Shown here piece after piece: positions 6,888 to 39,026 of a stretch of DNA of 64,000 bases; position 1 is the stretch's first letter; the number at the start of each line of letters is the position of its first letter. Below the pieces are notes generated by a model that had not been told where the DNA came from, did no database searches, and worked only from the letters and a program-made list of their open reading frames with translations. The DNA is from Antedon mediterranea (Eukaryota; Animalia; Echinodermata), in NCBI RefSeq assembly GCF_964355755.1, contig NC_092672.1:10106001-10170000 (forward strand). The letters run 5' to 3'. The translations under genes and the position numbers were made by a program.

Positions 6888-7007
6888 TTAGGCTTCATAA
6901 TGACCAGGAAAGAAGAACAGTTTTTTGGTAAGCATGGTAACAGGTGCTGGCATCTGTTTGTTACGGCCAGAAGAAGATTCAAATGCACGAGCTACTTTGT
7001 TGTTCAC
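6888..7007 (-). CDS. CASP9: Caspase last coding exon: VNNKVARAFESSSGRNKQMPAPVTMLTKKLFFFPGHYEA*
   Basis: KQMP...LTKKLFF C-terminal caspase motif; tttatag|GTG acceptor; TAA at 6890-6888. Confidence 0.95.
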   Translation of the reverse strand: MNNKVARAFESSSGRNKQMPAPVTMLTKKLFFFPGHYEA

Positions 7008-10000
7008 CTATAAATAAAAAATCATATAATTTACAATTTAAGAAAACACATGATGGTAAATTGATACAATAATTATGTATCTTGGTACCATGGTTCCAGT
7101 ACAGCATAATATAGAAAATACAGTCATCAAAAAACTGTTTAAACAAGAAATATTTCATACAAAAAACGCTGCTCGACATTTTAAAATTAATCATTGTTCT
7201 TTCTTCAGATATATTTATGATTAATTATTAAAAAGATGACCTTTAATCGCAAAAATACATACAAATCAAAGATACTTCTTTAATTATAAATTACATGCCC
7301 ATTTAAAAATGGTCAATTTTGAACTTTAATGTGCTGTGTGTGTGTGACTTCAACCTGTAGGCATGCAACTGAATATTTCTCTAGAAACGACGTGACTTCA
7401 CGGCGGTACAAGTGAGGAAATTCTTCACACAATCTGTTGATTCGCGTCAATCAATCAAAGGACGAGAATCCAAAATCATTCAACCGTGAGCCCTCACAGA
7501 CTCTCTTTTCCCAGACGTTTTTTTTTGGGTCCAGCAGCTGGGATCTATATTATAGTCGAGTTTACAAAGTCGCAAAACTGGCAGCCTTAGATACTATAAC
7601 TGCTGCTTGCTTTAGCTTCTGAATGAGTAGTCCTCATGGGTTGTAGCTGGCTAGAGCAGCAGCGTGAAAACAGAAGAGTGAAATAATACAGCTGTATTGA
7701 GACTTATCTTTTTAATCGTATCTTAAATATTGTTAGTTTTATTTGATAATCTGCAAGATGGGTTACTCATTTTCTAAAGCTATTTGAAACTGAAAATAAC
7801 ACCAGAAGTAATAAACAACCCAATAAATAATAATTGAACAGTAAGGCATAACCATTACAGAGTAATAAAATTTATGACTTTGCCTAAAGAAAGTTGAAAG
7901 CTTTAAAGACAGTAATTTAAAATCTCATTTCCCTGATGATGTAAAGCCTCCTTCCGTTTTACACACAAACTGATAATTCACGTATCTATTTTGATAAATG
8001 TTTTTCTTTTCAGAACCTAAGAAGCTCTCGTCGTTTCAAGCACAAAGGTCAACCCTGCAAGAAAATATACTCTAAAAGAAGCTTTAAATCACATACAGTA
8101 CTATTTTCTTAAAATGTGAAGAAAATCCTGCCTGTAGGTTTGATTTGATGTGGATATTTCATTACACCTGTTTAGTGCGGTTAACAAAAGAAACCAGACT
8201 TCTTGCGGGGATCGAGGTTCTTATTTATGTAGAGAAAAATTATGGACAAGTGTCCTAATTTATGTACGGAAGCCCGTTCGGGCCACAAGTTAACTGTATT
8301 TTAAAAGCTGTTATCTGGCGGCCGCCACTTAATTATCTGGCGGCCGCCACTTAATTATTAGTACATGTCCCGTCACGTGACATGTACGTGCATTGGATCA
8401 GAGGCGATGTTGCATGCAATAAAAGGCAAGCAATGCAATCATGATTATGTACGGAAGCCCGTTCGGGCCACAAGTTAACTATATTTTAAAAGCTGTTAAT
8501 TAATTGGCGGATAATTAAGTGGCGGCCGGCAGATAATTAAGTGGCGGCCGGCAGATAATTAAGTGGCGGCCGGCAGATAATTAAGTGGCGGCCGGCAGAT
8601 AATTAAGTGGCGGCCGCCAGATAATTAAGTGGCGGCCGCCAGATAACAGCTTTTAAAATATAGTTAACTTGTGGCCGAACAGGCTTCCGTATTTATGCAA
8701 CCTAGTTACAGTAAATATAATTTAATGGTATTGACCATGTTTTAAATGCTGTATAAATTATTAATTGATAAACATGCAAAGTATCAATGTTAGTAGTACA
8801 TTACTGTACTTGAACTAAATTAATGGTATGCAAAACTAATAAATGAAAGTCCTTAAAGACTGATACTGTTAAGTGCTACTAAATTTTTTCATCACTGAAA
8901 ACATTATAAATGGAATATATTGTAATTTAGTAAAATATTCATAAACTTCATAATATACTATACCTCACCTACTGATATGTAATTCATGATTATATAGAAT
9001 TTCTCTAAATTACATTGTATTACACAGTTCCATAAAAAAATTGTAAATTTAGATTTTCAAAACAGAGACTAGGAAAACACAATTGGTCTAATGCAGGCCC
9101 GTAGCCAGGGGGGGTTTTTATGGTTCGGGCGAACCCCCAACCCCCCCCCCCTTTACAGCGAACCCCCCTTAACCGACTGCGAACCCCCATCCCCGACATG
9201 CCCAATACCTCACCCTCATCTCCAAAAATCCTCCAAATACGTGCCCCACAGTACAAAAAGTTGTTTGTAAATTGAAAAATTTGTAAACTTGTTCGTGAAC
9301 CTTCTTCTCTGTATGAGCGTCAACTAGCGATACGTGTCTGTAAATTTCTAAAAGCTGCAAATGAATTGCCGATTTTAACCTGAAAAATAAATGTTTGGTC
9401 CCTGCATGTAACATGATATTGACGCGTCTCATAGCAAACTGGGGCACGAACGATTCGTACAAAGGACTCCGCCAGACAACTACGTACCTATAATTGTTTA
9501 GATCACTGGCAGTCAGGCAGCATGCATAAAGTATATAGCCTTCCGACGTACATCAGTATTTATGTGTGACTATGAAGTATAATGTATCAGGGCCGTAGCC
9601 AGGATCTGTCAAGGGGGGGTTCGGACACTAAATATTTGGGTCAACCCCTGGGGGTGGGGCCTGATGCGAAGCGAATTTTGTTAAATGACACCCCTAGATG
9701 GCCGGAAAAGACACTCTCGTGCAGCATGCTACCGATGAGCAAAAAGATCGTACTTTTTTCCTCCTTCTCAAACACGTCGATAATTTAAAGGACGATAACT
9801 ATTTGTTGGCGTATGTTAGATGCGCGTGCTCTGTGTGCGGAACCGCCGATTGTTTGATCATTTACTCCGTATTTTGTTTTGCGTTCAAGTTCAATGCGAA
9901 CGTACATCTAGGAGCAGCCCCGAAAAAAGCACACTTGTTGAAGGCAAATGCTATTTGCTAGCTCTATCTATAATATTTATTTACAGCAATTTGTTGAGGA

Positions 10001-13000
10001 ATATAAATATGTAAATAGGTGATATTGATACATTTTAGTACGTATCGGCTGGTGGTCTGGAAAAAAATAATCGGATGCCATAATGTGAACTACAGTACTT
10101 GATACCATAGATATTATAGTGTAAAATATTAATATTCACTATAATCCTCTATGATACATTATACTTCATAGTCACACATAAATACTGATGTACGTCGGAA
10201 GGCTATATATTTTATGCATGCTGCCTGACTGCCAGTGATCTAAACAATTATAGGTACGCAGTTGTCTGGCGGTGTCCTTTGTACGAATCGTTCGTGCCCC
10301 AGTTCGCTATGAGACGCGTCAATATCATGTTACATGCAGGAACCAAACATTTATTTTTCAGGTTAAAATCGGCAATTCATTTGCAGCTTTTAGAAATTTA
10401 CAGACACGTATCGCTAGTTGACGCTCATACAGAGAAGAAGGTTCACGAACAAGTTTACGAATTTTTCAATTTACAAACAACTTTTTGTACTGTGGGGCAC
10501 GCATTTGGAGGATTTTTGGAGATGAGGGCGAGGTATTGGGCATGTCGGGGATGGGGGTTCGCAGTCGGTTAAGGGGGGTTCGCTGTAAAGGGGGGATTCG
10601 CCCGAACCATAAAAACCCCCCCTGGCTACGGGCCTGTGTATCATAGAGGATTATAGTGAATATTAATATTTTACACTATAATATCTATGGTATCAAGTAG
10701 GCCTACTGCAGTTCACATTATGGCATCCGATTATTTTTTTCTAGACCACCAGCCGATACGTACTAAAATGTATCAATATCACCTATTTACATATTTATAT
10801 TCCTCAACAAATTGCTGTAAATAAATATTATAGATAGAGCTAGCAAATAGCATTTGCCTTCAACCAGTGTGCTTTTTTCGGGGCTGCTCCTAGATGTACG
10901 TTCGCATTGAACTTGAACGCAAAACAAAATACGGATTAAATGATCAAACAATCGGCGGTTCCGCACAGAGCACGCGCATCTAACATACGGCAACAAATAG
11001 TTATCGTCCTTTAAATTATCGACGTGTTTGAGAAGGAGGAAAAAAGTACGATCTTTTTGCTCATTGGTAGCATGCTGCACGAGAGTGTCTTTTCCGGCCA
11101 TCTAGGGTTGTCATTTAACAAAATTCGCATCGCATCAGGCCCCACCCCCAGGGGGGGGGGGGGTTGACCCAAATATTTAGTGTCCGAACCCCCCTTGACA
11201 GATCCTGGCTACAGCCCTGTAATGGGTCGGATATTGTACGTGGAAAAGTAATCCAAGTACAAGTCTTGGTTGATGTTAATGTTATTTTTTAACTCTCAAA
11301 GATTTCTTCAAATAATTCATTTATAAGTCATATGATCCAAGAAAATAAAGGATATTTTGTCATAAGTAGATTGATAGGAAGTCATCTAACATCTGTGAGG
11401 TTGATGTACAGATAAACTCAGAAGAAGAATTTATAAATCATACCTTAAATGGCAAACTGTATTATTATATAACTGTGTACAATCTCATTTTCAGAAAAAT
11501 AATCTAAGAACTGTGAGGTTGATGAACAGATAAACTCAAATGACAGGTCAAATTTATATCATATCATAAAAGGCAAAACAAACTATAAGTTTGATAAAAA
11601 AAATAATAATTTAAAAACTAAGAATTCTCTAGTAGCAAAACAACTTCTGATTATTTTTTTAATATAATAATCCAGAGGAAATGTTACCTCTGATTTTTAA
11701 ATCTAGTGTCTGAAATTAAACAATACATCATTAAATATATTTTTTTAGACTTAAAGTTGAAATTTGTTTTTTTATTTGTGTTATTGCATCTACTGTATAA
11801 ATTCAAGCTAAACTGTGAGGGGGGGGGGGGGTTGGAGGTTGGCGAGTATAGGGATCGCAAGTGTACTGGGAAGTTTTTAAGCAACACGTCCTAGGGTGCC
11901 GCGGGTATCTTCATCTTTGTTCCACAATCAACAAATTGATTATTACAGAACTAGGAGGTCTAGTAGAAGTTGCTGTGTGAAATAGTACACCGGGGCAACC
12001 CCTACTCGTCTTGAAAGATGTACTATAGGTTCTTTAAAGTGCATATGAGCATTTTGTGTAGACTATATACCTAACTGGCCACCCTACCACATAATGCAGA
12101 GGCTTAGTACAATGAGCTCCTAACAGCTCATTCCCCTACGTTCAGAGAACACGGGACTTACCTTTACCTTTACATACCTACAGTTTATAGTTCTTATCTG
12201 AGAAAACTTGTTCTACCACCAGAACCATGAAGCAAGTGAGGCTTGAAACCTTGCCAATATTATGGCTATGTACGGTTCCACTATCTTAACCGCTAGGCCA
12301 CTTATTCGTAATACTAATAATACTAGAATATAATATATTCTAAAAGCGTGGAATATATTGTAGATTGGGTGGGGAACTAGTGACCTACTTGTGAAATACC
12401 AATAAATAAGTTACTTAAAGGACAACTTGACCGAGGACCATATTTTAACAACATATTAGGGATGTACATATGACTTCAGAACCATCGCGAGATTAAGGAT
12501 AACCCCGCACGCGCTCACCGTACAGCCGTCGCCATAAATTCCTGTGACCTCACAGGTGCATCGCAACATTTACGTCATGAGTTTTCTGGCAAAGTCTGGC
12601 AAATTGCGAACATTTCTAGTAAACACACTTTGTAAAGAACTAGACTCATTAAGTGAATTTTGCAATGTAACTGTGACGTCACTGCAATTGACAGCGACTT
12701 TTGTTTGCAATTCCCAAACCTCTAAAGTCTGAATATTACCAACACTTATTACAACCTTACATCAAGATTGTCCTTTACTGTTACAATTGATATATATAAA
12801 CTATTTTGGTAATGCCAAGTCAAACGTGTCTCTACAAATGCCAGTGCGTTTCATTTATAGTTACTATTATTTTATCAATATCTAAACTTTTTGACAACCT
12901 GGGAATATTTTGCTTGCTACAGTTCGATTATTTGAAATGCTGACAAAGAGATTTCAACAGATCAGCTACAATCAAGTAAATAATCTGTAAAAATATATAA

Positions 13001-16000
13001 AATATATTAAGCTTACCATTGTAAGCATAGAAAGTAGATCCTCTTCACGTGCATGCTGTAGAAATGTTTCAGTAAGAGCTTGCACAAACCATGAACCTCT
13101 CTCTGAATTACGCCATGATACATAACCTAACAAAATAAAAATACAATAAATAATATTATAAATAACATTACCTTACACTCTGGTGTTAGTTCAGGACTTT
13201 ACGCAGGTTGGAAGAAATCAGCCAGAGCTGAAGTTGATATAATTACTTCAAAAATCGTTCTTTCCGAAATGTATAATTTACTTTCAATATCAATATCTAC
13301 TAACAATTATTATTCTTTATGATCAACAATCACTGATATGATAATCAGTCGGTTGAGAGTTCAATGACTTTAAATGATTTGATCACCGATATCTGACACA
13401 GATCGTTTAGTTCGGGTTAATGAATTTACGTTAAAGCTTCTGATACTAAATAAACTTTTTAATAATTCTTTATTTTCAAAAGACATGAGATGAGATATAA
13501 AAATGCTTTGGAAGCACAAATTCAATATTGATGACTATTGCGCAATTTCTTACTTGGGTTAGTATACAAATAATGAATGTTTATGAGTGCAATGGTACAA
13601 ATAATGGCACGAGGTGAATGATGAAAGGTTATATCAACGAGGCAAAGCCGAGTTGATATAACCTTTCATCATTCACCAAGTGCCATTATTTGTACCATTA
13701 CACAAATACAAAACATTCATTATTTGTTTTATATAACATCTAGACGTTTTTTTTTCGTACACAAAAATGTTTCAAAAAGTACTATTTAACGATCGTTGAA
13801 TAGTGCGTACTATTGCACGCCATGTGACCCACATTCGTCCAATCAAATGACAGGAATTTATATAGGTGTTATATAAAACTAAATAATGTCTAGTCAAAAA
13901 TCTATCAGCTTAAGTTTGCTAAAGGTTGAACTAAGCTGGGACAGTTGCATTGGATAAAAGCATGGTTGTTGTGACTTGACAAGATTCTATAGATTAAAAG
14001 TAGCTTAGACAGTGTAGACTGGCACAGCTGCATAGGCGCAGTTAAAGGCATGGTTTCTGTGACTTGGCAGCTTAGACAATATGGAATAGAACAGCCTTCG
14101 GTAAAACAACATTGCAATGTAAACTATCAAATATGATGAAACTGTTGATGTAGTCAAGAGCGAAATACATGTGGTATTATTACACACAGTACCTCTACAA
14201 GATTGAGCGAGTGTTATTTCTATTGTGTAAACAACGTTGTGAAAACGGCCGATATTGAAGTTGAGCGTGAAAACGAGAGCAAGCACAGTTGCATAGGCAC
14301 AGCTAAAAGCATGGTTTACGTGCTTGGTAGTTTCTAAAGAGAGTTCTTACATGGCACAGTTAAAAGCATGTTAATGTGGATTGACAGCTTTAAATGTGTC
14401 ATTACCTGGTAGTTACATGGCTAATAGCATGTTACTGTGGCTTTAAATTACAGCTAAAGTGTGTTCTTACCTGGTACAGTTGCATAGGCTAAAAGCATGT
14501 CACTGTGGCTAGGCAGCTTAGATATTTTGCTACCAATTGCATCTGTTTCATCAAATTCGATTTTCAACATCCTATTAACAAGATTCTCTGGATTATCAAC
14601 ATCTCCATTAATGTTTAGGGAATGAATATCAGGATCTACGGAGGAGCCTTCATTTGCCGATGGTCCATCCGTGGCTTCAACGCCTTGATCAAACATTTCT
14701 TTAAAAAAAATTTATATTTCCAGTGAGAAAATAAAATAAAAAAGACAGCTTTACTTTGAAACATTACACTTTTTGGGAGAAAAGTGATAAAAAGAAGAGT
14801 TCGAAACTCACTAGCACTATGATTCTGGTTGTAGAACATAGTCTTCTCTTTCAAGACGAGTAGGAGTTACCTTGGTGTACTAGTTCACACACAATGCAGT
14901 GAGGACATTATCTTTGAATTTATATAGCAATTGACAATTTCTACGCATGAGAAATGTGATGCATGTAACCATTATAGTTTATGTTATAATTCTATTAAAA
15001 TAACTGGAAATTGGATAATAACAATTGCAAACGTTGATTTCGCATGTTACTGTACATCTTTGTAGAATACTTTTTAAGCAAGACAATTTGCATGTATAGA
15101 ATAATAACAACTCTTTAGTTTCTATCTAATCAAAGCAGAAGCCAAGTAAATCCATTGTCTCTATCAACTACAAGTGTCAAGAATTAATTTTCAGATAAAT
15201 TCTTTATTTTCAGGTTGGTTTATTGAGACAAGCATTTACATCAAAATATATTCTCCTCTATTTTAAATTCAAATCCGTCTAAATTTTTCACAAGTAGTTT
15301 TCATGAGGTGAATCTCTTTGTACAAACATTTATGCAGAAACATTTCACAAAATACAATTAATTTTTCAACTACAAGTGTGAATAACCGAAGTGTAGACGA
15401 TAAATTAGATTTGATTGCATGCTAAAGTTGTTAGCTATTTTTATAAGCGGTCAATAACATTGTTAGATTTTACAGCAAAGAAAAACAAAAAAAAACAAGA
15501 GTAAGTGAGTGAGTAATAAGAATTTGTTTGATAGAAATACGTAAATTCAAAAATACGCTTTACAATAATTGATGGGCTTTATGGATGTAATATGCATATA
15601 ATAATGTATTATTTTCTATCAGCATGGTTGACCATGCATGGAATGTAAAATTTTGTAATACCAAGGTTGACTCTGTACATAGTTCCAAGGTGCCGTTTAA
15701 GACTATAGAATTGAGAGGTACAGTTGATATGCGGATGGAAAACACTGGTTTTCACAAACAAAAAACACTAAAACAAAAATATTTCATAGTCGGTATATAT
15801 CATGTGTATCACATGCAGTGCATGTATTATGCAAGGTCAGGTTAAGGTTTTGGTCTATGATATTGGCTGTATTCACCAACCACACTTGAAGTGAGATATT
15901 TCTCTTAAATATTATTTAAGGTGCAATATCTATACCTGATGTGTCTAAATATGTTTTTAAATAAATAAAAAGTATTTCTCTTAAATTGTATTCACTTCAT

Positions 16001-19000
16001 TCAAGTGTTTCTCTTAGACTAAGTGTGAATGGTGAATACGGCTACAGCTGCACAGTTGACCATGCTGATAGCCTTATGTGTTTTATTACATCCACTCACC
16101 TCCACGGCAGGCTTGGATGAAAAAAAGCTTTGGTTTACCAGTCAGGGATGGGCAACTGTCTCCAGTAAAACAATTCTGAATATCATCTACTTTGATGAGC
16201 CGTTCGTCCACACTGTACAAGGCACCATTCACACCATGAGTGAGCACGGCAATGATGAAGCAATCATACCGAGAATGATTCATTGTGCTGTAATGCCTCA
16301 ATTTTTTATAAAAGTCCTAAAAAATATTAAATTTTGAATTGAATTTTAAAATCAAGTTTTCTTTCCATAAGATTTCAATGTAACTATAAATTTAAATTAG
16401 TTTAAGGATGTGCATTTAACTGTGTTCAACTGTGCATTGGCAAAAGTGTGGATTATCATAATGCATATGAATTGCATAGTGCATTATTAATGCATAATGT
16501 ATGATGTATTATTATAATTAAATACATAATGCATGATAAATAAATTTGTACTGTATAATGTGTACCGGTAATTAATGCATAATTCATGATTTTCAGGAAG
16601 CACACAATTGATTTATATTATTCAGTAGTTCAAAGACATACATTGTACTTGAATTCTAAATCCTTTTTTGTTCAGTTGTCATACGTGTACCTAGCACCCA
16701 GTGAGAGTATGTATTTCAAGTTTACAAATTATAGGTGCTGTATGAGGTAGGAAGTGATGGTGTGTTTCTATGTAGCAGTGGTAATTGGTGTCGATGTGCA
16801 TTACTGGAAATAGAAGAATAATCCAGCAAAATTGCACCATTAAACCATATTTTGTTTCCCTTCTCTAATTCATTCAAATAGTTTGTATATTTCAAGTGGT
16901 CAAAATATAATTCAGGACAAACCAATGTTCATTTTGGTAGCTTTTCAAAACTGATAACAAATTTATATTCAAGAATTGGTTTTAATTTCAAATTTTAAAT
17001 ATTTGAAATAAATAAAAGTGAAGAGGTAAATTATTTATTGTCTTCAAGCTTAACTGGAACCAGATTACAACGAATATTAAATAAAGTAGGTAGGATCACA
17101 GGATCTAGACATAATTTGGATGACATTTGCAACAAAATCATAAGAAATAAGGCTATGAAAATATGCGACGACTCAAACCACCCTTTAAATAAACATTATG
17201 TTAAAATGAGATCAAAAAGACTAAATGTGCTGAGATCGTGCAATAGTAGGGTTATGCGATATTTTAATTCTTTTGTTCCGTATTCTATTAGACTGTTAAA
17301 TGATTTTGCATAATTTTTGAAATTTTTTATGTATTGCAGCTTTTTATTTTTTATTTAGTTAATTGTAGTCTTATGTTCATACTAAGTACATTGTTAAATA
17401 ATATATAGTATTTTTAAATATTGTAATTAATTTTTTTTATATGAAACGTTTTTATATATTTTTGTACAATTTTGTGAAAAGCACTCAAAATATTTTCCTA
17501 TGTGGACGAAATAAAGTTATCAAATTTGTATCAGATCCTCTAGGGTCTCACAGCAGTCGGCAGTGCAACGCCTACCAATATCCGGAGAGATCAGGAAACA
17601 ATATTCTACTCTTTTTGAATAGTGTACAGAGTTCTTCAACATGCCCTATGTGTACACGGGACCAATGGCTTTACGTCCCATCTAAAGGACGAGGCAATGA
17701 CAGTAAAGCATTTTGCCTAAGGATACAATCAGTATGGTACAGATGGACATGGACACATGCTTGTCCGATTGTGTTACTATCATTACACCATCACTCTCCG
17801 AACTATGGTGATCTAACAAGAAGCTGTGTTTCAACCAATATGGCCGTTAAATACTCACACTATATGTTGAATTTGTAAGATTTTCAACCTCAAATGCTAA
17901 TTGAGTAAACAAACATTCAAGCTGTCGAGCATCCACATCGGTTCCTTTTCGTAACGGCATCGATCGGAAATTACGATTGTTGACTATCAGCGCTTTCCCT
18001 CTAGGCTTTGATTTGATTGTGTAGTTCTGATGAAAAAAAAAAATTAAAAAAATCTCAGTAGTAGCATTTATAGTACAACAATTATAGCAGCTTTCTTAAT
18101 AAAGATAGTACGGTTTCTTGGGTATGACCATACTGTAGGGAGCCCTCTATTGTTTGTTGTAAAAAGAGAGAATAACATGGACATCAAACAAGACTGTTGT
18201 AACTGAGCCTACAATGTAGGGTTGTTTAAATAATGATTCAGTTCCAAAATCACGGCTACATAGTGTAGATTATCTTTGAATGTACTGTCCATTTGTAGGC
18301 CTAGCAGAAAATATTTTAAATCCATCAATTTACATTAGAATTTCTATGCTTTCAATTTAATGATATTAATTTATATATGATAAACTTTTCCTTTTCCTGG
18401 ATTTAGAGTATGAACAACTGATCGAAATACTGCAATCTTAAATGATATTGTTCGTAAAGGGCCAAAGGCATTCCGTGCATTAGCAGAGTCGTTGTTTGCT
18501 ACTGAGATGTACCATCTAGCTACACTTTTAATACCAGACCTTACTGAAGATACATTGTACGATTTAAGCTATTATGAATTTGAAAATGATACCAAAGCAC
18601 CTATGCAACCAAGTGTTGGAGACAAGCCACCTGTGCAGCAGAGTGTTGCAGAAGGCAGTGGAGATTTTAATCCCACACGCAAGTTTCCGACTGGATTTAC
18701 ATTTTAATTAATATTTTAATTGTTTATAAACTTTTACAACTACTGTTGAGGGTGCTGCATTCACAGCTGGACTCTATACATAATGTGAACACATCCTTGT
18801 ACAGTATGTATTCTATAATTTCACTGAACCAAATCTAAGAATAGTGTGAACGCAGCTAATACATATACACTACCTGTGGACTATCGGTCATTTCACTTGT
18901 ATAATTTCCTTTACTCATTTTCATTTGTAGAACTTCATCTGCAGTTTTCTGTGGCCAAGCTAAATATAGGGTGAAGAGTAATGGAAATATGTATTACAAA

Positions 19001-21389
19001 AAAGTAATAAATTTGTGTTTTTTGTTTACATGTATAATAAGCAAATTATCAAAAATATGATTTAGTATAATTAAATGAATTGTTATAATTGGAACTTGCA
19101 CTCCTTGACCATGGTCTTGAATGTAAAGTTCTGTCTACACTATACTAACTAGTTTGACAAAAAAAATGTGATGTTCCCAAATGTGGTAATGATATGACAT
19201 TAAATCATGTCCATATATGGGCACATCACATGTTTTTGTCACATAAAGTTCAGGGCCGTAGCCAGGATCTGTCAAGGGGGGGTTCGCACACTAAGTATTT
19301 TGGTCACCCCCACCCCCATACCTACCCCCCCCCCCCTGGGGTGGGGCCTGAGGCGAAGCAAATTTTGTTAAATGACACCCCTAGATGGCCGGAAAATACA
19401 CTCTCATGCAGCATGCTACCAATGAGCAAAACGATCGTACTTGGACTCGTGGACTATTTAAACGATAACATTTGTTGCCGTATGTTAGATGCGCGTGCTC
19501 TGTGCGGAACCGCCGATTTTTTTATCATTTACTCGATATTTTGTTTTGCGTTCAAGTTCAATGATAACGTACGTCTAGGAGAAGCCCCGAAAAAAGCACA
19601 CTGGGTGAAGGCAAATGCAATTCTTATTATAGCTCTATCAATAATATTTATTTACAGCAATTTGTTGAGGAAATTAAATATGCCAATGTAAATAGGTGAT
19701 ATTGATACATTTGAGTACGTATTGGCTGGTGGTCTAGAAAAAAATAATCGGATGCCATAATGTGAACTACAGTACATGATACCATAGATATTATAGTGTA
19801 AAATATTAATATTCACTATAATCCTCTATGATACATTATACTTCATAGCCACACATAAATACTGATGTATGTCGGAAGGCTATATACTTTATGCATGCTG
19901 CCTGACCGCCAGTGATCTAAACAATTGGTACGCAGTTGTCTGGCGGTGTTCTTTGTACGAATCGTTCGTCCCCCAGCTCGCTGTGAGACGCGTCAATATC
20001 ATGTTACATGCAGGGACCAAACATTTATTTTTCAGGTTAAAATCGGCAATTCATTTGCAACTCTTAGAAATTTACAGACTATATCGCTCGAAGTACGCTC
20101 ATACAGGGAAGAAGGTACTGTATGAGTTATTCCGAACGAGTTTACGAATTTTTTAATTTACGAACAACTTTTTGTACTGTGGGGCACGTATTTGGACGAT
20201 TTTCGGAGATGAGGGTGAGGTATTGGGCATGTCGGGGATGGGGGTTCGCAGTCGGTTAAGGGGGGTTCGCTGTAAAGGGGGGGTTCGCCCGAACCATAAA
20301 AACCCCCCCTGGCTACGGGCCTGAAGTTTGATAGTGTAGACAAGGTTTAAGGCAAGTTTTCTATATAGGATGATTTATAAATGCAGGTCCAGTGTACACC
20401 TGTGTACCTTTAGGAAGTAAGGGGTTGCCCTAATGTAGTGATGCTGTCGCAGTAGACAAATGAGCGCTGTTTGAGGCAGCTGAACACAAATTGGACCTTT
20501 TAGCTATAAGATGGCATTTAGTCCAGTTGCACTTTGAGACAGTGTTATCTATCATTTTTATCAATCAATGTTATTATTATCATCTACATTACCCTCTGAG
20601 ACTTGCGTCGGAAACTTGCGTGTGGGATTAAAATCTCCACTGCCTTCTGCAACACTCTGCTGCACAGGTGGCTTGTCTCCAACACTTGGTTGCATAGGTG
20701 CTTTGGTATCATTTTCAAATTCATAATAGCTTAAATCGTACAATGTATCTTCAGTAAGGTCTGGTATTAAAAGTGTAGCTAGATGGTACACCTCAGTAGC
20801 AAATAACGACTCTGCTAATGCACGGAATGCCTTTGGCCCTTTACGAACAATATCATTTAAGATTGCAGTATTTCGATCAGTTGTTCCATTCATACTCTAT
20901 AACAACAAATTATGAGAAAATATTACAATTTGACTTGTTGTTTGTTTGTTTTTATTATATATTTTACATTCAATTATTTTATAAAATATTTTGAAAACAT
21001 AATACTTTTAATAGTCATGCTATGCCTAGTATCCAGATTATTATGTTGGCATAAATGGTTTTTATACAATCAATTTTTCTCATTTGTCCAATTTTAAAGA
21101 TTGTAGAAAAGTAAAAAAAAAGTGTTAATTTTCTAAAACAATATTGTAGTACAGTTTACTGTATGTTTAGTTTCATTATAAGAGTAACCAGTATTATATT
21201 TCAATATAAGAACACGTATCTTTTGTATTATTATTGGGTTATAAAAACAATCCTACAAACCCGGTATTTTTCATCTTCAGATGTATTAAAAATTTGTCTA
21301 GCCACTAATTCGTTCAAGATATCCATGGGCATATCGCTAACTAATGTTATACGATTCGTTCGCAGAATCTTCTTGTGTGCAGCTTCCAT
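6888..21389 (-). CDS. CASP9: CARD-containing initiator caspase, caspase-9-like, ~453 aa. Eight coding exons: 21389-21261, 20896-20593, 18959-18874, 18026-17859, 16316-16100, 14698-14471, 13126-13017, 7007-6888
   Basis: All junctions are GT-AG and phase-consistent; the exons sum to 1362 nt ending in TAA. N-terminal CARD (MEAAHKKILRTNRITLV...RKGPKAFRALAESL). Large subunit: KPRGKALIVNN, RKGTDVD, catalytic His in VLTHG, Cys in GKPKLFFIQACRG. Linker DETDAIGS. Small subunit: [33 protein letters not shown]...KQMP...LTKKLFF. Caspase-9 rather than caspase-2 is judged from motif resemblance only. Confidence 0.92.
8265..8691. mobile_element. MITE/foldback element with long TIRs and internal 21-bp GGCGGCCG-containing tandem repeats
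   Basis: TACGGAAGCCCGTTCGGGCCACAAGTTAAC...GTTAACTTGTGGCCGAACAGGCTTCCGTA; flanking direct repeat TTTATG; left end duplicated at ~8449. Confidence 0.85.
9094..11219 (-). mobile_element. Non-autonomous TIR DNA transposon (~1.07 kb family), outer copy, interrupted by a second copy
   Basis: Termini CAGGCCCGTAGCCAGG...CCTGGCTACAGCCCTG; 5-bp TSD TAATG (9089-9093, 11220-11224). Confidence 0.92.
9588..10636 (+). mobile_element. Same family, inner copy in opposite orientation
   Basis: CAGGGCCGTAGCCAGG...CCTGGCTACGGGCCTG; 5-bp TSD TGTAT (9583-9587, 10637-10641). Confidence 0.92.
11880..12305 (-). mobile_element. SINE-like remnant (Nin/Deu-domain-like)
   Basis: GGTTCTTTAAAGTGC...CACGGGAC...GTTTATAGTTCTTATCTGAGAAAACT...CCGCTAGGCCA pattern (recognition only). 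Confidence 0.4.
13017..13126 (-). CDS. CASP9: Caspase exon 8: [37 protein letters not shown]
   Basis: Substrate-binding S-W-R and GSWF motifs; ttgttag acceptor; ATG|GTAAG donor. Confidence 0.95.
13565..13735. repeat. Long palindrome, probably a MITE
   Basis: AATAATGAATGTTT...GAATGATGAAAGGTTATATCAAC / GTTGATATAACCTTTCATCATTC...AAACATTCATTATT. Confidence 0.7.
13905..14460 (-). repeat. Degenerate tandem copies of the 3' end of caspase exon 7 in intron 7
   Basis: Repeated variants of cagttgcatagg-ctaaaagcatg-tcactgtggct-aggcagcttaga. One copy translates SKLPSHRNHAFNCAYAAVP versus exon [17 protein letters not shown]. Confidence 0.75.
14471..14698 (-). CDS. CASP9: Caspase exon 7: intersubunit linker and start of small subunit
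   Basis: ORF 14454..14696 (MFDQGVEATDG...[28 protein letters not shown]); CCAG|GTAAG donor. Confidence 0.93.
16100..16316 (-). CDS. CASP9: Caspase exon 6: catalytic His (LTHG) and Cys (QACRG)
   Basis: ORF 16086..16301; tttttag|GAC acceptor; G|GTGAGT donor. Confidence 0.96.
17050..17520 (+). mobile_element. LINE 3' fragment (L2/Rex1-like)
   Basis: RLQRILNKVGRI...DDSNHPLN...RYFNSFVPYSIRLLN C-terminal motif, then T-rich UTR and AATAAA. Confidence 0.7.
17525..17765 (-). mobile_element. SINE-like remnant
   Basis: GGCTTTACGTCCCATCTAAAGGACGAGGCAA...GCCTAAGGATAC resembles common invertebrate SINE cores (recognition only). Confidence 0.4.
17859..18026 (-). CDS. CASP9: Caspase exon 5: start of large subunit, NYTIKSKPRGKALIVNNRNFRSMPLRKGTDVDARQL...
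   Basis: Canonical caspase PRG-x-ALI-NN and R-x-GT-x-x-D motifs; poly-T acceptor; GTGAGT donor. Confidence 0.93.
18406..18690 (+). pseudogene. Inverted, near-identical copy of caspase exon 3 inside caspase intron 4
   Basis: Matches the reverse complement of ~20608-20897 with a 5-nt deletion and few substitutions; flanked by direct repeat CTGGATTTA (18397-18405 and 18691-18699). Confidence 0.9.
18874..18959 (-). CDS. CASP9: Caspase exon 4: prodomain linker (A)WPQKTADEVLQMKMSKGNYTSEMTDSPQ
   Basis: 86-nt exon (tttag|CT ... CAG|GTAGTG) that restores frame between exons 3 and 5. Confidence 0.8.
19251..20323 (+). mobile_element. Third copy of the 5-bp-TSD family, nested in a small palindromic MITE (~19124-20350)
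   Basis: Same TIRs; TSD AAGTT (19246-19250, 20324-20328); host ends TGTCTACACTAT / ATAGTGTAGACA. Confidence 0.9.
20593..20896 (-). CDS. CASP9: Caspase exon 3: CARD C-terminal half plus linker
   Basis: Within ORF 20561..20893; acceptor ttatag|AGT; donor G|GTAATG; phase 1. Confidence 0.88.
21261..21389 (-). CDS. CASP9: Caspase coding exon 1 (gene exon 2): CARD N-terminal half, MEAAHKKILRTNRITLVSDMPMDILNELVARQIFNTSEDEKYR
   Basis: ATG at 21389; acceptor AG at 21404-21403; donor GTTTGT from 21260; phase 0. Confidence 0.88.
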
Positions 21390-22487
21390 GATTCAGTAAA
21401 ATCTGTTGAATAAATAATTTAATTCTAATTATTATTAATTCACTGAATATTATAACAAGTTTAGAATGAGAAAACTTTTTGGGAACCTTATTCGATCAAC
21501 ATAATAATAATAACCATAATATACAGTAGTATTAATATAGAATTGATGACTTTAAAAAAAAAATACAATAAAAATAATACTGTATATATATAGATTATTC
21601 ACAATTTGATCACTTAAATTAAAGAAACACAACCATATTTAAACTCTTCTTCCTACACTTACAGTATGTATTGATCAGTAACTATATTCAGTCAGTATAC
21701 AGTACAGTACTTAACATCTATAATGCCTTTCATTAATAATTATTCAAAATGTACTGTAGTGAACGATGTCGTCCGAGCGTCTACAGTGACAGATGAAATC
21801 AGTTGATTGCGTTTTGAACCAGTCACAATAAAATCAATTTTGGATGGAGCACTGCTTTTAGATACTGTAGTGCAGGATTGTTTTTTTTTTATACTTTTCT
21901 TTTAATCTACATTTTTTAAAACCATTTGTTAAACTGAAATCATTCAGTAAATTACTGTAAAACAATATTAGTAACCTCCTATTATGACCAAAATAAATTA
22001 AAATGTTTCCTGGTCGCTGTGTAAGTTTGGAGCAATTTTATGCACTCTGGCCGCAATTCAATTTGGCTTCCTGTGTTGGTCACAGTGCATATCGGCCGCC
22101 AGTCATTTCGGCCGCCGGTTATGGAACGCCTAAAATCATGAAACGCCAAAAAGGACAAAATATGTATTGTTCATTTCGGCCGCCAATCGTCAATATTGTT
22201 AATGTATGGCACGCCTCAATTATAAAAAATGGTGTATACATGTGCCTATCGCCTGAATAGACGTGCGTATTCAAAAAGCAAGCAGCAATCAACAAAAACG
22301 ATCATACTTTTTGATTTGTATAGAGTTGCGCTATTTTACGGTCATTCGCCGGCTTCTTCTCCTGACTGAGCCCTACAACCTCTCAGCACCCCCCCCCCCC
22401 CCCCCACACACACATAACAACCACTGTGAAATAAAATAAGTTGTGTAGAAATACTTTAGTTAAAACTACTAAACTAATGATTTACAC

Positions 22488-24847
22488 GGTCTTTTGATGA
22501 TATCGGTCGCGTTTGAAATCGGTCGCCCTATTTTGTATGGAGCGGGATGCATGCTAGCGGGATATACATTTTCTTCATTTATATAGATTTAATTGATATT
22601 TTTTAGGGGCTAGATTATTTATGTGGATATTTTTTATTTGGTTATCAATCGGAGAAGGACTATGTCTTTCCAAAATAGTCATTTCTAAACACGTTTAAAT
22701 ATTAAATTAGGTAAATATTATATCAGGCATATAATAATTTACCTCCAGTTATGTGTACTGTAATTAATATATTATATAGAGAATATACGTCTGTCCTTTA
22801 TTATGCAAACAATTACGTAAAAGAGAACAATTTATTTAAAAACAATAATTGTTACAATGTATAGCCCGTAAAAAAGCCAGCGTATCCATTGTTATACTTA
22901 TGCATACTGTGGCAGATTATATCATGTCGTTAACAACATACTATTCGATCACCTAATTTTTATTTTTTTATTTTATTTACATCCGTTATGTAGGATAATA
23001 TTAAGTGTATAATAATAATTGTTGAGACAAATCACGTGTATACTTTTATTTCTAGTGTTTAAAATAGTTGTTAGTAAAAATGATCATTATATGCGGATGG
23101 TTAAAAGGCGAGTTACTGAAATAAACCCCCGAATAAGCCATATTGGGGGAGATTCGCCTTCTATGGCGTATATAAGACCTATTTTAGAATATGCTGCCCC
23201 TGTTTGGCATGGCGCTATCACTAAGGACATGTCCAAGTCTATTGAAAAGGTACAAAAGAGAGCATTGCGTATCATGCTAGGTAACAACTATTTGTGCTAT
23301 GATCATGCATTGTCTGTTACTGGTTTACCTACTCTTGTAGAGAGAAGAAACAAACTTGTGTTGTCTTTCGGGGAAGGCTTATTAAAATCCGAGCTGTTTA
23401 GAGAAATACTTCCCCCTCTTCATAAGCCAGCTCGGTCTCTCAGAGTCAACCGCTTTCTAGAAGTACCTCATTGTAAAACCAGCAGACTTAGGTCGTCTCC
23501 AGTTCCCACCATGGTGGATATAATTAATAGGCACCACTAGCTCTTTTTTAGATATGTAATAAGTGAATGTTTTAAGGTTTTTTATTCATGTATGTTTTTA
23601 ATTGTATGGTACGATATCTAATTTTATTAAGATGTTTCTATTTTTATAGCAATTTTAACTAATTTTTAGTCATTTGTAATACATTTCATTTCAGTCCTTG
23701 ACTGTCGTTTTGTAATATATTTTTATATACCGAATAAATAAATAAATAAAAATGATCGTGCAGCTGTTTCCTCTCTAACAATGCGTTATTTTGCTGACTG
23801 GGTTTCCCCTTTTTTAAAAGCACGCACTTGTTAGTGTGTCAAATCATGGACAAAACACGACGTACGATCGTTGTCCATGGCCAGGTAAAGATGACGTCTA
23901 TTACTAATAACCATACTTTTAAAACGTCTATAGGCCTCCTGCACGTGTTTTTGTGAAACGATGTATATAATTTACGTATACTGTACGTCGATACTATAGA
24001 TTTTAATTTGAAAAATATCTTTTATTTCTTTATTTACAATAATCATTTAATGTAATTAAGTAAGTAGTCTCACATAACATCCATACGACGTTCGTAAATC
24101 TAAACGTTTAAATATCAGTACCTCTTTGAGAATCGTGTCCACCTATAATTATCCATACATTATTCTCACATCTATCATTGTACATCATAGACATACTGTA
24201 GGGCTGGTAGATTGATTTATAACGGAATATTATCTATATATTTTATTATTATCCTAAACCATGCTCACGTCAGAGTGGCGGATATCGAATGCAAAAATCA
24301 TCATCATGCATCAAATTCCTGTATTGCATAAACCTCATTGAGCTGGTATCCACTTGCAGGTATAGAACGAGTTTCGTAATTAACTGTGATTAAAAAATAC
24401 GCAATAGGCGCGTCTACTTGTTTAACAATTAAATTATTATTTATTTTCAAAACCTTAAACAACGGCATGCTAAAAGAACACATTACAATTCATTCAAACC
24501 TGTAAGATAAAATGGAAAAACAAATTATTTATAAATAATGAGATAAATATTTATATTTACTGTACTTAAAAAATAACGATCGAGGTTTAAAAAAATGTCA
24601 AACAGTATTATTAGAAATTCCAATATTCAAAATTAACTAAAAACATAATGAAAATGTATCTAATGCGCCATATACAAATTAGTGCGACCAAAATAAAACG
24701 CGACCGATATCGTAACTAATAGGATAAAAAGCGTATCTAGCGGCGCTCCATACAAAATACCGGATGTTTATTTTATCGCGACCGATTTCAAACGCGATCG
24801 ATTTCAAACGCGATCGATTTCAAGCGCGACCGATTTCATCTGACACC
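22488..24847. mobile_element. Nested TIR element with GCGACCGATTTCAAAC subterminal repeats
   Basis: GGTC...GACACC ends; direct repeat ATTTACAC at 22480-22487 and 24848-24855. Confidence 0.7.
23160..23752 (+). mobile_element. 5'-truncated LINE (CR1/L2 group): 3' end of ORF2 plus tail
   Basis: YIRPILEYAAPVWH...IEKVQKRALRIM...GLPTLVERR motif; (AATA)n tail. Confidence 0.85.
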
Positions 24848-25693
24848 ATTTACACACGTCTATTCAGGCGATAGGCACATGTATACACCCTTGACAAGTA
24901 AGTAAGTAAAAATACGTTATTAACAATATTGACGATTCTGGCGGCCGAAATGGACAATACATATTTTGTCTTTTTTGGCGTTTCATGATTTTGGGCGTTC
25001 CATAACCGGCGGCCGAAATGACTGGCGGCCGAAATGATCAGACACCCTGTGTTTGGGTAAATGTAAACGACACTTGCTAGCCTATATGTATATTTATGCT
25101 ACCTACCTTTTAAATTAGTATTAGAAGACTAAGAAATTAACTTCCACTTATCAATTCATTGCAATTTTTGTACTACATAATCAGTATCAATAATGTTATA
25201 AAAGTATTGATGATTGTAGGGCCTATTTTCCGTGTTTAGCTTAGGCCTACTTCTACTAGCTTGGTAGGCCTAAATAGGCCTCCTCCTACTGGACTCTAGT
25301 ATAATAGCTAGCCTTAGTAGAGGCCTACCAATTGAATACAATAATAGAATACACTCACTACCAAAACTAGGCTAGCAGTAAATTACTAGGGCCCTAGTGT
25401 CAGGTGGCACAAAAACACATAACAATTTAGTAGTAGTTATGTCATTGGGCTAGGACACATCACCAACAAATGTAGGCCTCTTAGGCATAATTGGTCTAGG
25501 CCTAGCTAGGCCAGCCTACCCAGTCCTACTACTAGGCGGGAGCTAGCCTAGCTAGGCCTAGCCCTACCGGATAAGGGACGGGGATAATCACTCTGAGTCT
25601 CATGGTTAAATAATAATAAGCTACCCTACCTAGCTAGGCTTAGGCCTAGCCCTCCCTAGCTATAGACTAATGTATTGCTAAAACAGCATTTAC

Positions 25694-25860: not shown

Positions 25861-27269
25861 TACAGTGATTCAATTGTTACAAGAGTCGATGAATTGATAC
25901 AGTTTTTAGCTTAAACAATTCATTTGTCTATATTCTGTAATGTTCTAATTGTTGTCAAAGATAGTGTAGTTGTTATTATTAGTGTACAAACAATAAGACC
26001 AATACACAAATTCATTCATTTCATGCTGATTACACTTTATTGAACTACAGTATTACAATGTCATCTTCTTAGCCTTTTTTTGATGTATTTTATTTTTTAA
26101 GTTCAGATTTACAGTTAAAAAAGGCAAACGATGGAAAATAAAATCCATGACAAAGTAACATTACAATGAATATATTTATCATTACAATAAATGTCCCTGT
26201 TCTTAGTGTACTACTGCCAAACTGGTCACTTACATATAACATTAACATTAAAAAGGGAAAATTGGCATTAAAGTGTAAAGTGCAAATGAGTAGTGGGTGG
26301 ATCTCAAATACAAATAAAATAATAAATTGCAGTCCTTACTCAGTATGAATGTTTATAATAATATATTGATTTAACACAGCCCACCCCCACCCTTCCCCTT
26401 CCTTTGAGACACTCTGCAAAATATGTCACGTTTTCTACAACCAACCCGTACTCAGGGGACATGTTTGAGTGTGCTAAATGGTTGATTCAGGGGTCACCAA
26501 AAACATCAAAGCATTTTATTTATTTATTTCGTTATCTATTTAATACAAAAATTGATATGATAATTATGAAAATAATTATGATACTTCCTCTGGCTTGACA
26601 ATGACAGTTTTCATGGTGAAACATTCAGAATGAACCCCTTTAAAAATAATTGGGTGCTGCAGGATTTACTGATTTTTAACACAAACCAAAAACCTATTCC
26701 TAATAAAAAATAGTATTTTGGTTTTTCGTTCCATTTGGAGTAATGAAGGCTGTTGAAATTACACTTATTCAAACATATAAAAATATAAACTTTGTATATG
26801 AAGATACACATGACCATTTCTCATCCAATAAAAATATTTTTAAAATTTGCTTCAATAATTATATTATTTATATTATAGTAAAATAATTAATAGTAATTAA
26901 TACTATCTCTAATGTTTTCTTCTTTGCACTATCCTGTGGTGTATGAAATGGCACTGCATTTTGTAAACAAGGCAACATTACCAGAATTACTAAAACTAAT
27001 TACAGAGCTAGACTGGTAGAACAATTTAATTTATCCTAACATGGCAATTGTTTAGCATAGTTCAACCTGTATATAGGGTTAGGGTTAAAACTAACACTGA
27101 ATCAATATTGATATATATATATATATATATATCTCTACCAAGCTACCTTCTTTGTTTTCTACTCTTATTCAGACTCCACCCTGGCTCCCTTTGTTATATT
27201 TCTTTTATTCCTGTCCACCCAGGCAGCACTTGCCAGCTTTATACTATGACGTTATCCATATTCCTTCAC

Positions 27270-27310
27270 TTGCACTGATGAAGGGCTAGTGTTGCCTGAA
27301 AGCTCTGCTA
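27270..27310 (+). ncRNA. Minimal hammerhead ribozyme motif, copy 1
   Basis: GCA-CTGATGA-A-GGGC tagtgtt GCCT-GAAA-GCTC-TGC: core boxes, stem II, palindromic AGCT stem III, short stem I. Confidence 0.6.
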
Positions 27311-27556
27311 ACTTTTCTGGCTGTTTTACTTCTCGTTTTGATTTAGCTTTTCGCTTTTATTTTGTATCTCCATTGAGATCCAGCCACTGATACCCACAGC
27401 ATTGTCATTTTTTTCAGTAATTTGCCTTTGGATTTATATATATTTTCTACTGTTTGTATCAATTTTGATCTGATTTTGCTGTAATTATGGAGGGTACTTT
27501 GGATAACTTTACCAAATTACGTCGCCTATACTATGACGTTATCCAAATTCCTTCAC

Positions 27557-27597
27557 TTGCACTGATGAAGGGCTAGTGTTGCCCGAAAGCTCTGCTA
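27557..27597 (+). ncRNA. Minimal hammerhead ribozyme motif, copy 2
   Basis: GCA-CTGATGA-A-GGGC tagtgtt GCCC-GAAA-GCTC-TGC, with a perfect stem II. Confidence 0.65.
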
Positions 27598-28524
27598 ACT
27601 TTTCTGGCTGTTTACTTTATCGTTTTGATTTAGCTTTTTGCTTTTTATTTTTGTATCTCCATTGAGATCCAGCCACTGATACCCACAGCATTGTCATTTT
27701 TTTTAGTAATTTGCCTTTGGATTTATATATAATACTGTAAAAGAAATATAACAAAGGGAGCCAGGGTGGAGTCTGAATAAGAGTATAAAACAAAGAAGGT
27801 AGCTTGGTAGAGATATAAACAATTTGGAATGAGACTAAAAAACAGCTTAAATGGTGATTAATATTGAAACTTAAATTTTGGTAGTCAATGGAATAATTTT
27901 ACCGATCTGGGAGTATGTTCCTAATGTTAAGTCCAAAAGGTTTTGTGGTTTTAAGTTGTAATTCTCAGTATTTTTCCTTGTCTTTGCGAGTTTTGTCGCT
28001 CCATTTGACATCATGGTCTATTGCAATAACTCTGAAATTTGCAATCGAGTGACCAGCTGAATTAAAATGTTCGGCTACAGGTTGATCAAGCTTTAATGTT
28101 TTGATAGCTGATCTGTGTTGTGTCATTCTCATACGGAGATGTTTTTTGTTTCTCCGACGTACTGTTTGCCACAAATATTACAGTATATGAGATAAATGAC
28201 GTTTTTGGTTAGACAATTAATTGATTGTCTTATCCGAAATATGCGGCCAGTTTGGTTACTCTTAAATTTTTCAGTAGGCAATTAATATTAATTCGAAACC
28301 GCCCGGCGTGGTACGGCGGAACAGCACTAGTCCTCAGTTGTACGCACGCGCACCAGAGATCAAATTGATACGCCCTCATCTTTCTATATTTTTATTCACG
28401 AGGCGGGATCTCCGAAGAGATACTTTTATATATATAAACACATTAGGCAATGAACATTAATTCGAAACCGCCCGGTGATATACCTACATTTAATTAATTA
28501 ATTTGAAACAATAAAGATGAGGAA

Positions 28525-38850: not shown

Positions 38851-39026
38851 TATAATTCAATTGTTACAAGAGTCAAGTGTTGATGGTACTTTATGAATTG
38901 ATACAGTTACTAGCTTAAACAATTCATTTTTGTCTATATTCGTAATGTTCTAATTGTTGTCAAAGATAGTGTAGTTTTTATTATTAGTGTACAAACAATT
39001 TAATAGACAAATTCATTCATTTCATG

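Follow-up and report, generated by a model that had tools for sequence, protein, structure and literature searches.

In humans, small inverted duplications have been described from 277 events with a median length of 284 bp, mostly joined through 1–15 bp of microhomology, and a replicative origin was suggested for them (PMC12350158). Microhomology of 1–2 bp at a junction occurs in template-switch rearrangements, and as discussed there is not diagnostic (PMC5120786). A second group, the templated sequence insertion polymorphisms (TSIPs), includes a class 1 that is defined by its target-site duplication (TSD) (PMC5110952). Consequences for the transcript are described for the mouse genes Impad1 and Clcn7, in which engineered inverted exon copies abolished the normal transcript, caused single- and multi-exon skips and gave knock-out phenotypes (PMC6415906). 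Perfect reverse-complement inserts of 220–297 bp in mouse Tbxt led to strong exon skipping, more than Alu pairs did (PMC10901737), and inverted Alu pairs are reported to be enriched around skippable exons (PMC13019027). In sea urchins, A-to-I editing is described as abundant, mostly repeat-directed and clustered (PMC9989829). Limited searches returned no report of the locus described here or of any naturally occurring inverted copy of an exon within its own intron; published supplements may hold cases.

The gene in question is a CARD caspase gene of Antedon mediterranea, with a coding span at 6888–21389 on the minus strand of the window (the whole 64-kb stretch of DNA that we analyzed). Its eight coding exons (21389–21261, 20896–20593, 18959–18874, 18026–17859, 16316–16100, 14698–14471, 13126–13017 and 7007–6888) give the database protein P0001, of 453 aa, exactly. 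This protein, which bears the name caspase-7-like of Antedon mediterranea in its source, matches the catalytic exon at 100% and has CARD and caspase domains. We kept the exon numbering of an earlier, sequence-only reading of the locus. The coding part of exon 2 (21261–21389, 43 aa) encodes the first half of the CARD, exon 3 (20593–20896, 304 nt) its second half plus a linker, exon 4 (18874–18959, 86 nt) linker alone, and exon 5 (17859–18026) the start of the caspase domain, all on the minus strand. The best database matches were echinoderm CARD caspases, including starfish caspase-3/9 (P0041; 47% identity over 99% of the length), which like the host gene combines a CARD with an effector-like caspase domain bearing QACRG. 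Judging from these best hits and the alignment, the crinoid gene is probably the orthologue of echinoderm caspase-3/9, a protein whose CARD binds Apaf-1 in the starfish (PMC5785508).

Intron 4 (18027–18873, minus strand) measures 847 nt with an insertion and 553 nt without it. The insert, at 18406–18690 (285 nt), has the exon sense on the plus strand and is antisense in the caspase pre-mRNA. Pairwise alignment identified it as the reverse complement of 20608–20897 (290 nt), with two substitutions and one 5-nt gap after the sixth base, which confirms the coordinates and the exon-3 identity that the sequence-only reading had assigned to it. As an inverted repeat, the pair has arms of 280 nt (18412–18691 and 20607–20886) that are 99% complementary and spaced 1915 nt apart. 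The insert is donor sequence from end to end. It holds no terminal inverted repeats or element remnant. Apart from one ambiguous G, nothing of exon 2 or exon 4 is present in it, and inspection of the sequence found no poly(A), AATAAA or TTTT/A-type site. The 5-nt gap lies at the insert's left end (18406–18414, plus strand) between GAA direct repeats, where AGTATGAATGGAAC has become AGTATGAAC, a slippage-type scar.

The 9-mer CTGGATTTA stands on both flanks, at 18397–18405 and 18691–18699 (plus strand), and has only one further site in the window, at 54582. Chance 9-mer matches between random position pairs arose in 55 of 200,000 trials with nine offsets allowed. The last two bases of the left copy (TA) also match the donor's intron-2 acceptor, and the first base of the right copy (C) also continues the donor. 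Because these bases are microhomologous, the target duplication is 6–9 bp long and not necessarily 9, so the 9-bp duplication proposed earlier is right as to the repeat on both flanks and marks the upper end of the true length. At the left junction, the target ...GATTTA is followed by G AGTAT, and the donor before AGTAT reads ...GTTATAG when unspliced and ...TACCGG when spliced; only the unspliced form offers the TA microhomology. The right junction shares a single C. Microhomology of 1–2 nt is too short to rule out chance. The copy starts one base before exon 3, with the G at −1, a base with which exon 2 likewise ends, and stops 14–15 nt before the exon-3 donor splice site. An earlier description of the copy as starting at the exon boundary is thus nearly correct, and its statement that no intron sequence is carried does not hold strictly, since the G at −1 and the preceding TA fit the intron-2 acceptor.

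Nine public sequencing runs cover the locus, of which five were compared, all as assembled contigs (X3, X4, X7 and X9 were left out). X1 and X2 come from sample S1, which may be the assembly's own source and would then not be independent of it; X5 comes from sample S2 and X6 from a related species, organism B. The empty allele, a joint of 18396 to 18691 with nine shared letters that leaves a single CTGGATTTA, was found in three of four runs (X1, X2 and X5). Depth at this joint was 164.8 against a flank depth of 294.8 in X1, 17.7 against 26.2 in X2, and 2.9 in X5. A 159-nt intronic contig of S2 spans the empty site with 87 and 72 letters on either side, and organism B is likewise empty, bridging 18388 to 18739 with 48 letters. 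Under our bridging rule of 31 letters, the joints in X5 (side 72) and X6 (side 178) qualify, and those in X1 and X2, with a side of 21 plus the nine shared letters, fall short of it.

The filled junction was seen in X2 only and on the left side only among the contig pieces listed, in a contig covering 18376–18441 at a depth of 10.7 and with 30 letters on the left, just under the rule. It is on this point that an assembly artefact could be argued, as the junction was shown in one run, from a sample that may have supplied the assembly, and one of its sides has 30 letters. However, the X2 piece has 0 differences from the window and includes the 5-nt gap, and the flank contigs of both X1 and X2 stop at 18405 and restart at 18691, exactly at the two repeat copies, as expected of a two-allele branch. 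The filled and empty depths in X2 (10.7 + 17.7) also come close to the flank depth (26.2), where depth served only as a consistency check and not as copy number. We consider an artefact extremely improbable. Since filled and empty forms are both present in S1, and only the empty state was seen in the contigs of S2 and organism B, the insertion is recent and polymorphic, the ancestral state is empty and S1 is a heterozygote. The sequence-only reading had proposed checking for misassembly and for presence or absence across individuals. The filled junction in X2 and the empty allele in X1, X2 and X5 speak to the first point, and the second comparison found both alleles in S1 and the empty one alone in S2 and organism B. 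Repeats at 17020–17800 and 19036–19240 largely swamped the contig comparison of the wider region. For an OB-fold-like exon, a search for homologues gave 0 of 104 candidates.

The two substitutions place G18494 in the insert against A20804 in the donor and A18507 against G20791. At both sites the copy agrees with another segregating exon-3 allele and not with the adjacent exon in the assembly, so 18494–18507 (plus strand) holds diagnostic bases common to the insert and that allele. Contigs of X1 and X2 over 18412–18540 show 0 differences from the insert. A spliced transcript contig in X5, with loose ends that continue into exon 2 and reach the end of exon 3, matches the insert at 18494 and 18507, with one other differing letter in 18412–18591. 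The A20804 site lies in codon L74 and is silent, and the G20791 site changes V79 to M. Because organism B and the window's paralogue have the same bases as the window's exon 3 (A20804/G20791), the G/A combination is a derived, segregating exon-3 allele that was copied into the insert.

We infer that the second S1 chromosome carries a G/A exon 3. The linkage of the insert with an A/G exon comes from the assembly alone, there being no X1 or X2 contig with an A/G caspase exon among those compared, and assemblers tend to discard the lower-coverage path. Either the copy was made in cis and a recombination followed in the 2.1 kb between the arms, or the template was the homologue or its RNA. If recombination and mutation proceed at about the same rate per base, as we assume, the 2.1 kb would undergo a crossover several times more readily than the 285 bp would gain a mutation, so that the recombination route needs nothing special. 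The mismatch is best explained by later recombination, which is favored roughly twofold over copying from the homologous chromosome.

The A>G difference at 20804 is a genomic allele, and it would mimic A-to-I editing in RNA-seq. The search for A-to-G clusters in exon 3, which had been proposed as a test for editing, has a trap in this respect: at 20804, such a difference would wrongly be scored as editing. We rejected the idea that G18494 is itself an A-to-I edit copied into DNA, because the linked G>A at 18507 cannot be editing and both bases are present in DNA contigs.

Among known mutation classes, the best fit is to the small interspersed inverted duplications, and the insert is a new case of that class: there is an extra inverted copy, the donor is intact, an empty allele exists and junction microhomology falls within 1–15 bp. 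Like the human events, as far as they are described in PMC12350158, it is about 285 bp long, polymorphic and joined by short microhomology with no repeat homology. Unlike them, its donor is the host gene's own coding exon and a target duplication of 6–9 bp flanks it. The insert also resembles the TSIPs of PMC5110952 in being a heritable, polymorphic copy-paste of non-mobile host sequence that left the donor intact, and it shares with class 1 a TSD of at least 5 bp and with class 2 its microhomology. As those classes are set out in that source, class 1, or an L1-type retrocopy, does not fit because poly(A), AATAAA and a TTTT/A site are all missing, and class 2 does not fit because a duplication is present and the donor is near (1.9 kb) and not distant. 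A processed pseudogene fragment was rejected because no spliced exon junction is spanned, and a Pack-type gene-capturing DNA transposon because there are no terminal inverted repeats inside the target duplication.

The insert was probably made by a template switch during DNA repair or replication. A broken or stalled end in intron 4 would have primed on exon 3, about 2 kb off and on the opposite strand, by means of 1–2 nt of microhomology. Some 290 nt would then have been copied, with a 5-nt slip at the GAA repeat, and the end would have rejoined its own locus 6–9 nt back, so that the target was duplicated. The donor's position within 2 kb suggests a mechanism that acts by proximity. The TA and C microhomologies, the slippage-type gap and the lack of poly(A) also support this origin. 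A plain switch in cis is opposed by the assembly, since it predicts identity with the cis exon and the assembly shows otherwise. A clean 6–9-bp duplication on both sides is, in addition, more typical of endonuclease or transposase cuts.

The template switch leaves the extent of the copy unexplained. When a 290-nt donor was placed uniformly within 3 kb, 17 of 5711 placements were wholly exonic and 54 of 5711 had an end no more than 1 nt from an exon boundary. Under the DNA model, such a near-exon-bounded extent can only be due to chance, to post-hoc selection or to the step in GC content between the exon (41%) and intron 2 (21%). The alternative is an RNA template: from a staggered nick in intron 4, an endogenous reverse transcriptase would have copied the nascent or spliced transcript of the gene itself, perhaps that of the other allele, and left an inverted copy that has no tail, is bounded by the exon and is flanked by a target duplication. 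In its favor, the copy starts at −1 of exon 3 and stays within the exon (0.3–0.9% by uniform placement). The identity of the G at −1 with the last base of exon 2, the target duplication, the match between the insert and the transcript allele in X5, a non-LTR reverse-transcriptase sequence in the window (RVT_1, 39010–40389) and published examples of RNA-templated patches at breaks (PMC5110952) point the same way. However, none of the expected poly(A), AATAAA or TTTT/A-type signals is present, and the priming end has only 1 nt of homology. A spliced template would not predict a stop at the exon junction, and there are no exon-2 bases past the ambiguous G. The TA microhomology is found with the unspliced acceptor only, to which a pre-mRNA template would fit just as well, and a free mRNA is not expected to land 2 kb from its source. 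An RNA template is unlikely on this evidence, and we keep it as a serious minority explanation because the copy is almost exon-bounded. The sequence-only reading had left RNA-templated and repair-templated insertion side by side. Repair gains from the single 9-mer in the empty allele, the microhomology at both ends and the nearby donor; the RNA-templated half is now less favored, given an insert with no poly(A), exon 2 or exon 4 and a junction that fits the unspliced acceptor (TA|G) better.

The target duplication also raises the question of a DNA transposase that made the staggered cut, through insertion and excision of an element with 8-bp duplications or through an aborted insertion, with the gap then repaired from exon 3. 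Should the C at 18691 come from the donor, the duplication would be the 8-mer TGGATTTA, and 8-bp target duplications were present at 3 of the 45 inverted pairs scanned in the window. Nevertheless, the insert has neither terminal inverted repeats nor an element remnant, the same scan found 9-bp duplications at 0 of 45 pairs, and no element-bearing or excision-footprint allele was seen at the site in the five runs compared. Transposon excision, moreover, usually damages the target duplication. This origin seems to us decidedly improbable, and a Mutator-type 9-bp footprint was rejected because it has no local support (0 of 45 pairs).

By analogy, the Impad1 and Clcn7 Cre-switch alleles are the closest functional model for the insert (PMC6415906). 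They too have a near-identical inverted exon in its own gene, and in the cases described the exon was skipped together with neighbors, once in frame. Those alleles were engineered. In the caspase gene the arms are separated by exon 4 and a 1.07-kb element, the 5' splice site is missing from the copy, and the effect is a prediction. The element is non-autonomous, with terminal inverted repeats and a 5-bp target duplication (AAGTT); it lies in intron 3 (19251–20323, strand unassigned) and makes up over half of the loop. The arrangement also resembles the AluY/AluSx1 pair of TBXT and the reverse-complement inserts of mouse Tbxt (PMC10901737, PMC13019027), in that inverted arms of about 300 bp flank an exon; the mouse constructs may have their arms closer together than the caspase gene does. 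The loop-out geometry is present, with the inverted arms within a few kilobases of each other and exon 4 between them. In TBXT, as described in those sources, both arms are intronic and fixed and a phenotype is known, whereas here one arm is coding exon 3, the insert is heterozygous and skipping of exon 4 shifts the frame.

In silico, the duplex of the two arms had a predicted energy of −544 kcal/mol, compared with −71 and −64 kcal/mol for the single arms folded on themselves. The predicted duplex takes in the intron-2 acceptor UAG and leaves the exon-3 donor (20593/20592) unpaired. The antisense arm ends only 379 nt before the exon-5 acceptor and is transcribed ahead of it, so the nascent RNA must carry both arms at once. 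Between them lies a loop of 1917 nt, or 284 nt once intron 3 has been removed. Such a duplex would promote skipping of exon 4, exon 3 or both. Near-perfect pairing over 280 bp, in which the paired arm contains 94 A, would also expose exon 3 to A-to-I hyper-editing. It is reasonable to predict a cis effect because pairing is very favorable and the engineered analogues cause skipping; we think it rather likely that a measurable one exists. Formation of a circular RNA from exon 4 was set aside because an exon of 86 nt is short. In ADAR targets, editing-complementary sequences are short, imperfect stretches that have been conserved and that direct recoding at selected sites. The insert is like them in being intronic and complementary to an upstream exon. 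In contrast to them it is a long and near-perfect match, is private (heterozygous in S1, with S2 and organism B empty), and would give hyper-editing.

Predicted products are 152 aa when exon 4 is skipped, 55 aa when exon 3 is skipped and 323 aa, in frame, when both are. Because the single-exon skips are frameshifts, a weakened allele is the most likely net result, and it would be masked in heterozygotes. The arithmetic behind the in-frame skip is as stated earlier: exons 3 and 4 sum to 390 nt (304 + 86) on an exon map checked against P0001, and exon 5 would be the acceptor for the hypothetical exon 2 to exon 5 junction. This double skip is nevertheless the least favored outcome, because it requires the 364 nt of intron 2 to be retained through about 3 kb of further transcription. 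It is doubtful that carriers do skip both exons in frame by way of the copy from the other allele, and so make a 323-aa, short-prodomain caspase that would lack the Apaf-1-binding CARD. If they did, RNA structure alone would turn an initiator-type caspase architecture into an effector-type one in a single step, in a wild and natural counterpart of an "inverted exon" allele. None of the runs is registered as RNA, and the only RNA data are the spliced contigs of X5, which carry the empty allele and speak to splicing in non-carriers alone. They have normal exon 2–3, exon 3–4, exon 4–5 (18026 to 18874) and exon 5–6 ends. Their listed loose ends include no exon 2 to exon 5 or exon 3 to exon 5 junction, in contigs that drop rare forms and come from the empty allele.

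That the copy might be a regulatory element, as the sequence-only reading had suggested, is not borne out. A cis-antisense switch that evolved under selection, tuning caspase-3/9 through skipping, editing or endo-siRNA, would benefit from a geometry well suited to the task and from an in-frame skip of exons 3 and 4 that would cost the protein half of its CARD, through which the starfish protein binds Apaf-1 (PMC5785508). In addition, of the insert's 265 21-mers, 84 have a match in the neighboring paralogue as well. However, the insert is on one of the two S1 chromosomes, S2 showed only the empty allele and organism B is empty, and the antisense arm is spliced out of the mature mRNA. Over the covered stretches, the insert is identical to its segregating source allele, and this lack of divergence leaves no time depth for an evolved switch, which we regard as very improbable indeed.

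Taken as a whole, we lean toward a recent, heterozygous, inverted copy made by repair, which is predicted to act as an accidental self-antisense element and is no evolved regulator. Most likely it is an accident of DNA repair; nothing suggests evolved regulation. Since the mutation class is known, the event by itself is ordinary. Its value lies in the presence of filled and empty alleles in one animal, with an outgroup and with marker bases in exons 3 and 5. This catches the birth of an exon-complementary sequence ahead of selection or decay and makes the locus a neat natural experiment. It allows a direct test of whether, in a wild invertebrate, a fresh self-antisense copy produces small RNAs, hyper-editing or the kind of skipping that engineered alleles cause in the mouse.

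On the minus strand, in the sense of the caspase pre-mRNA, the antisense arm formed by the inverted exon-3 copy in intron 4 begins, owing to the target duplication, with a CAG, and a donor-like CAG/GTGGCT follows 60 nt later. The segment between them (18690-18631, minus strand) may be a poison exon: it contains an in-frame stop, but the pyrimidine tract is poor. At the insertion junction (18385-18406), the plus strand gains a pyrimidine tract and a TAG ahead of the exon copy.

The transcript of S2, the sample of run X5, lacks 36 nt in frame (20706-20671, minus strand; 18592-18627 on the insert), which corresponds to 12 amino acids of linker flanked by imperfect repeat units. Two Anneissia isoforms (P0033 and P0034) differ by 29 amino acids beginning with GNV. 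Since read-through past the exon-3 donor in the window (20592-20561, minus strand) likewise gives GNV, followed by a stop, the comparison suggests an alternative donor in Anneissia.

Several mobile or repetitive sequences lie in and around the gene. Intron 5 holds a 463-bp multi-copy fragment (17061-17523), which we take to be LINE-like. One contig of run X1, from the sample with both filled and empty alleles, skips this fragment, which makes a second heterozygous insertion probable; no flanking target duplication was seen. Elements with terminal inverted repeats (TIRs) ending in CAGGGCCGTAGCCAGG occur at 19251-20323, 9588-10636 and 9094-11219, all three with 5-bp target duplications, and one copy sits within another family member that lies in inverted orientation. 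Two further TIR elements with 8-bp target duplications are nested (22078-25045 and 22488-24847) immediately upstream of the caspase coding start. Repeats at 27128-28281, direct ones of 205 nt and inverted ones of 80 nt, adjoin frames that resemble a GIY-YIG nuclease of the kind found in Penelope-like elements.

Additional paralogous copies of caspase exon 3 are present in the sequencing-run data. Within the window, a minus-strand paralogue of exons 2-3 (37866-37097) is 85% identical over 1.15 kb and has a weak CARD match, and an older, partial exon-3-like fragment (35820-35700, minus strand) lies 1.3 kb beyond it. Exon-like frames on the same strand (33887-31621) gave a weak RPA OB-fold match that fell below the cut-off (E 0.003), and the homologue search found no homologue of the OB-fold-like exon among 104 candidates. 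Together, the paralogue and these frames might form a CARD-OB-fold fusion gene.
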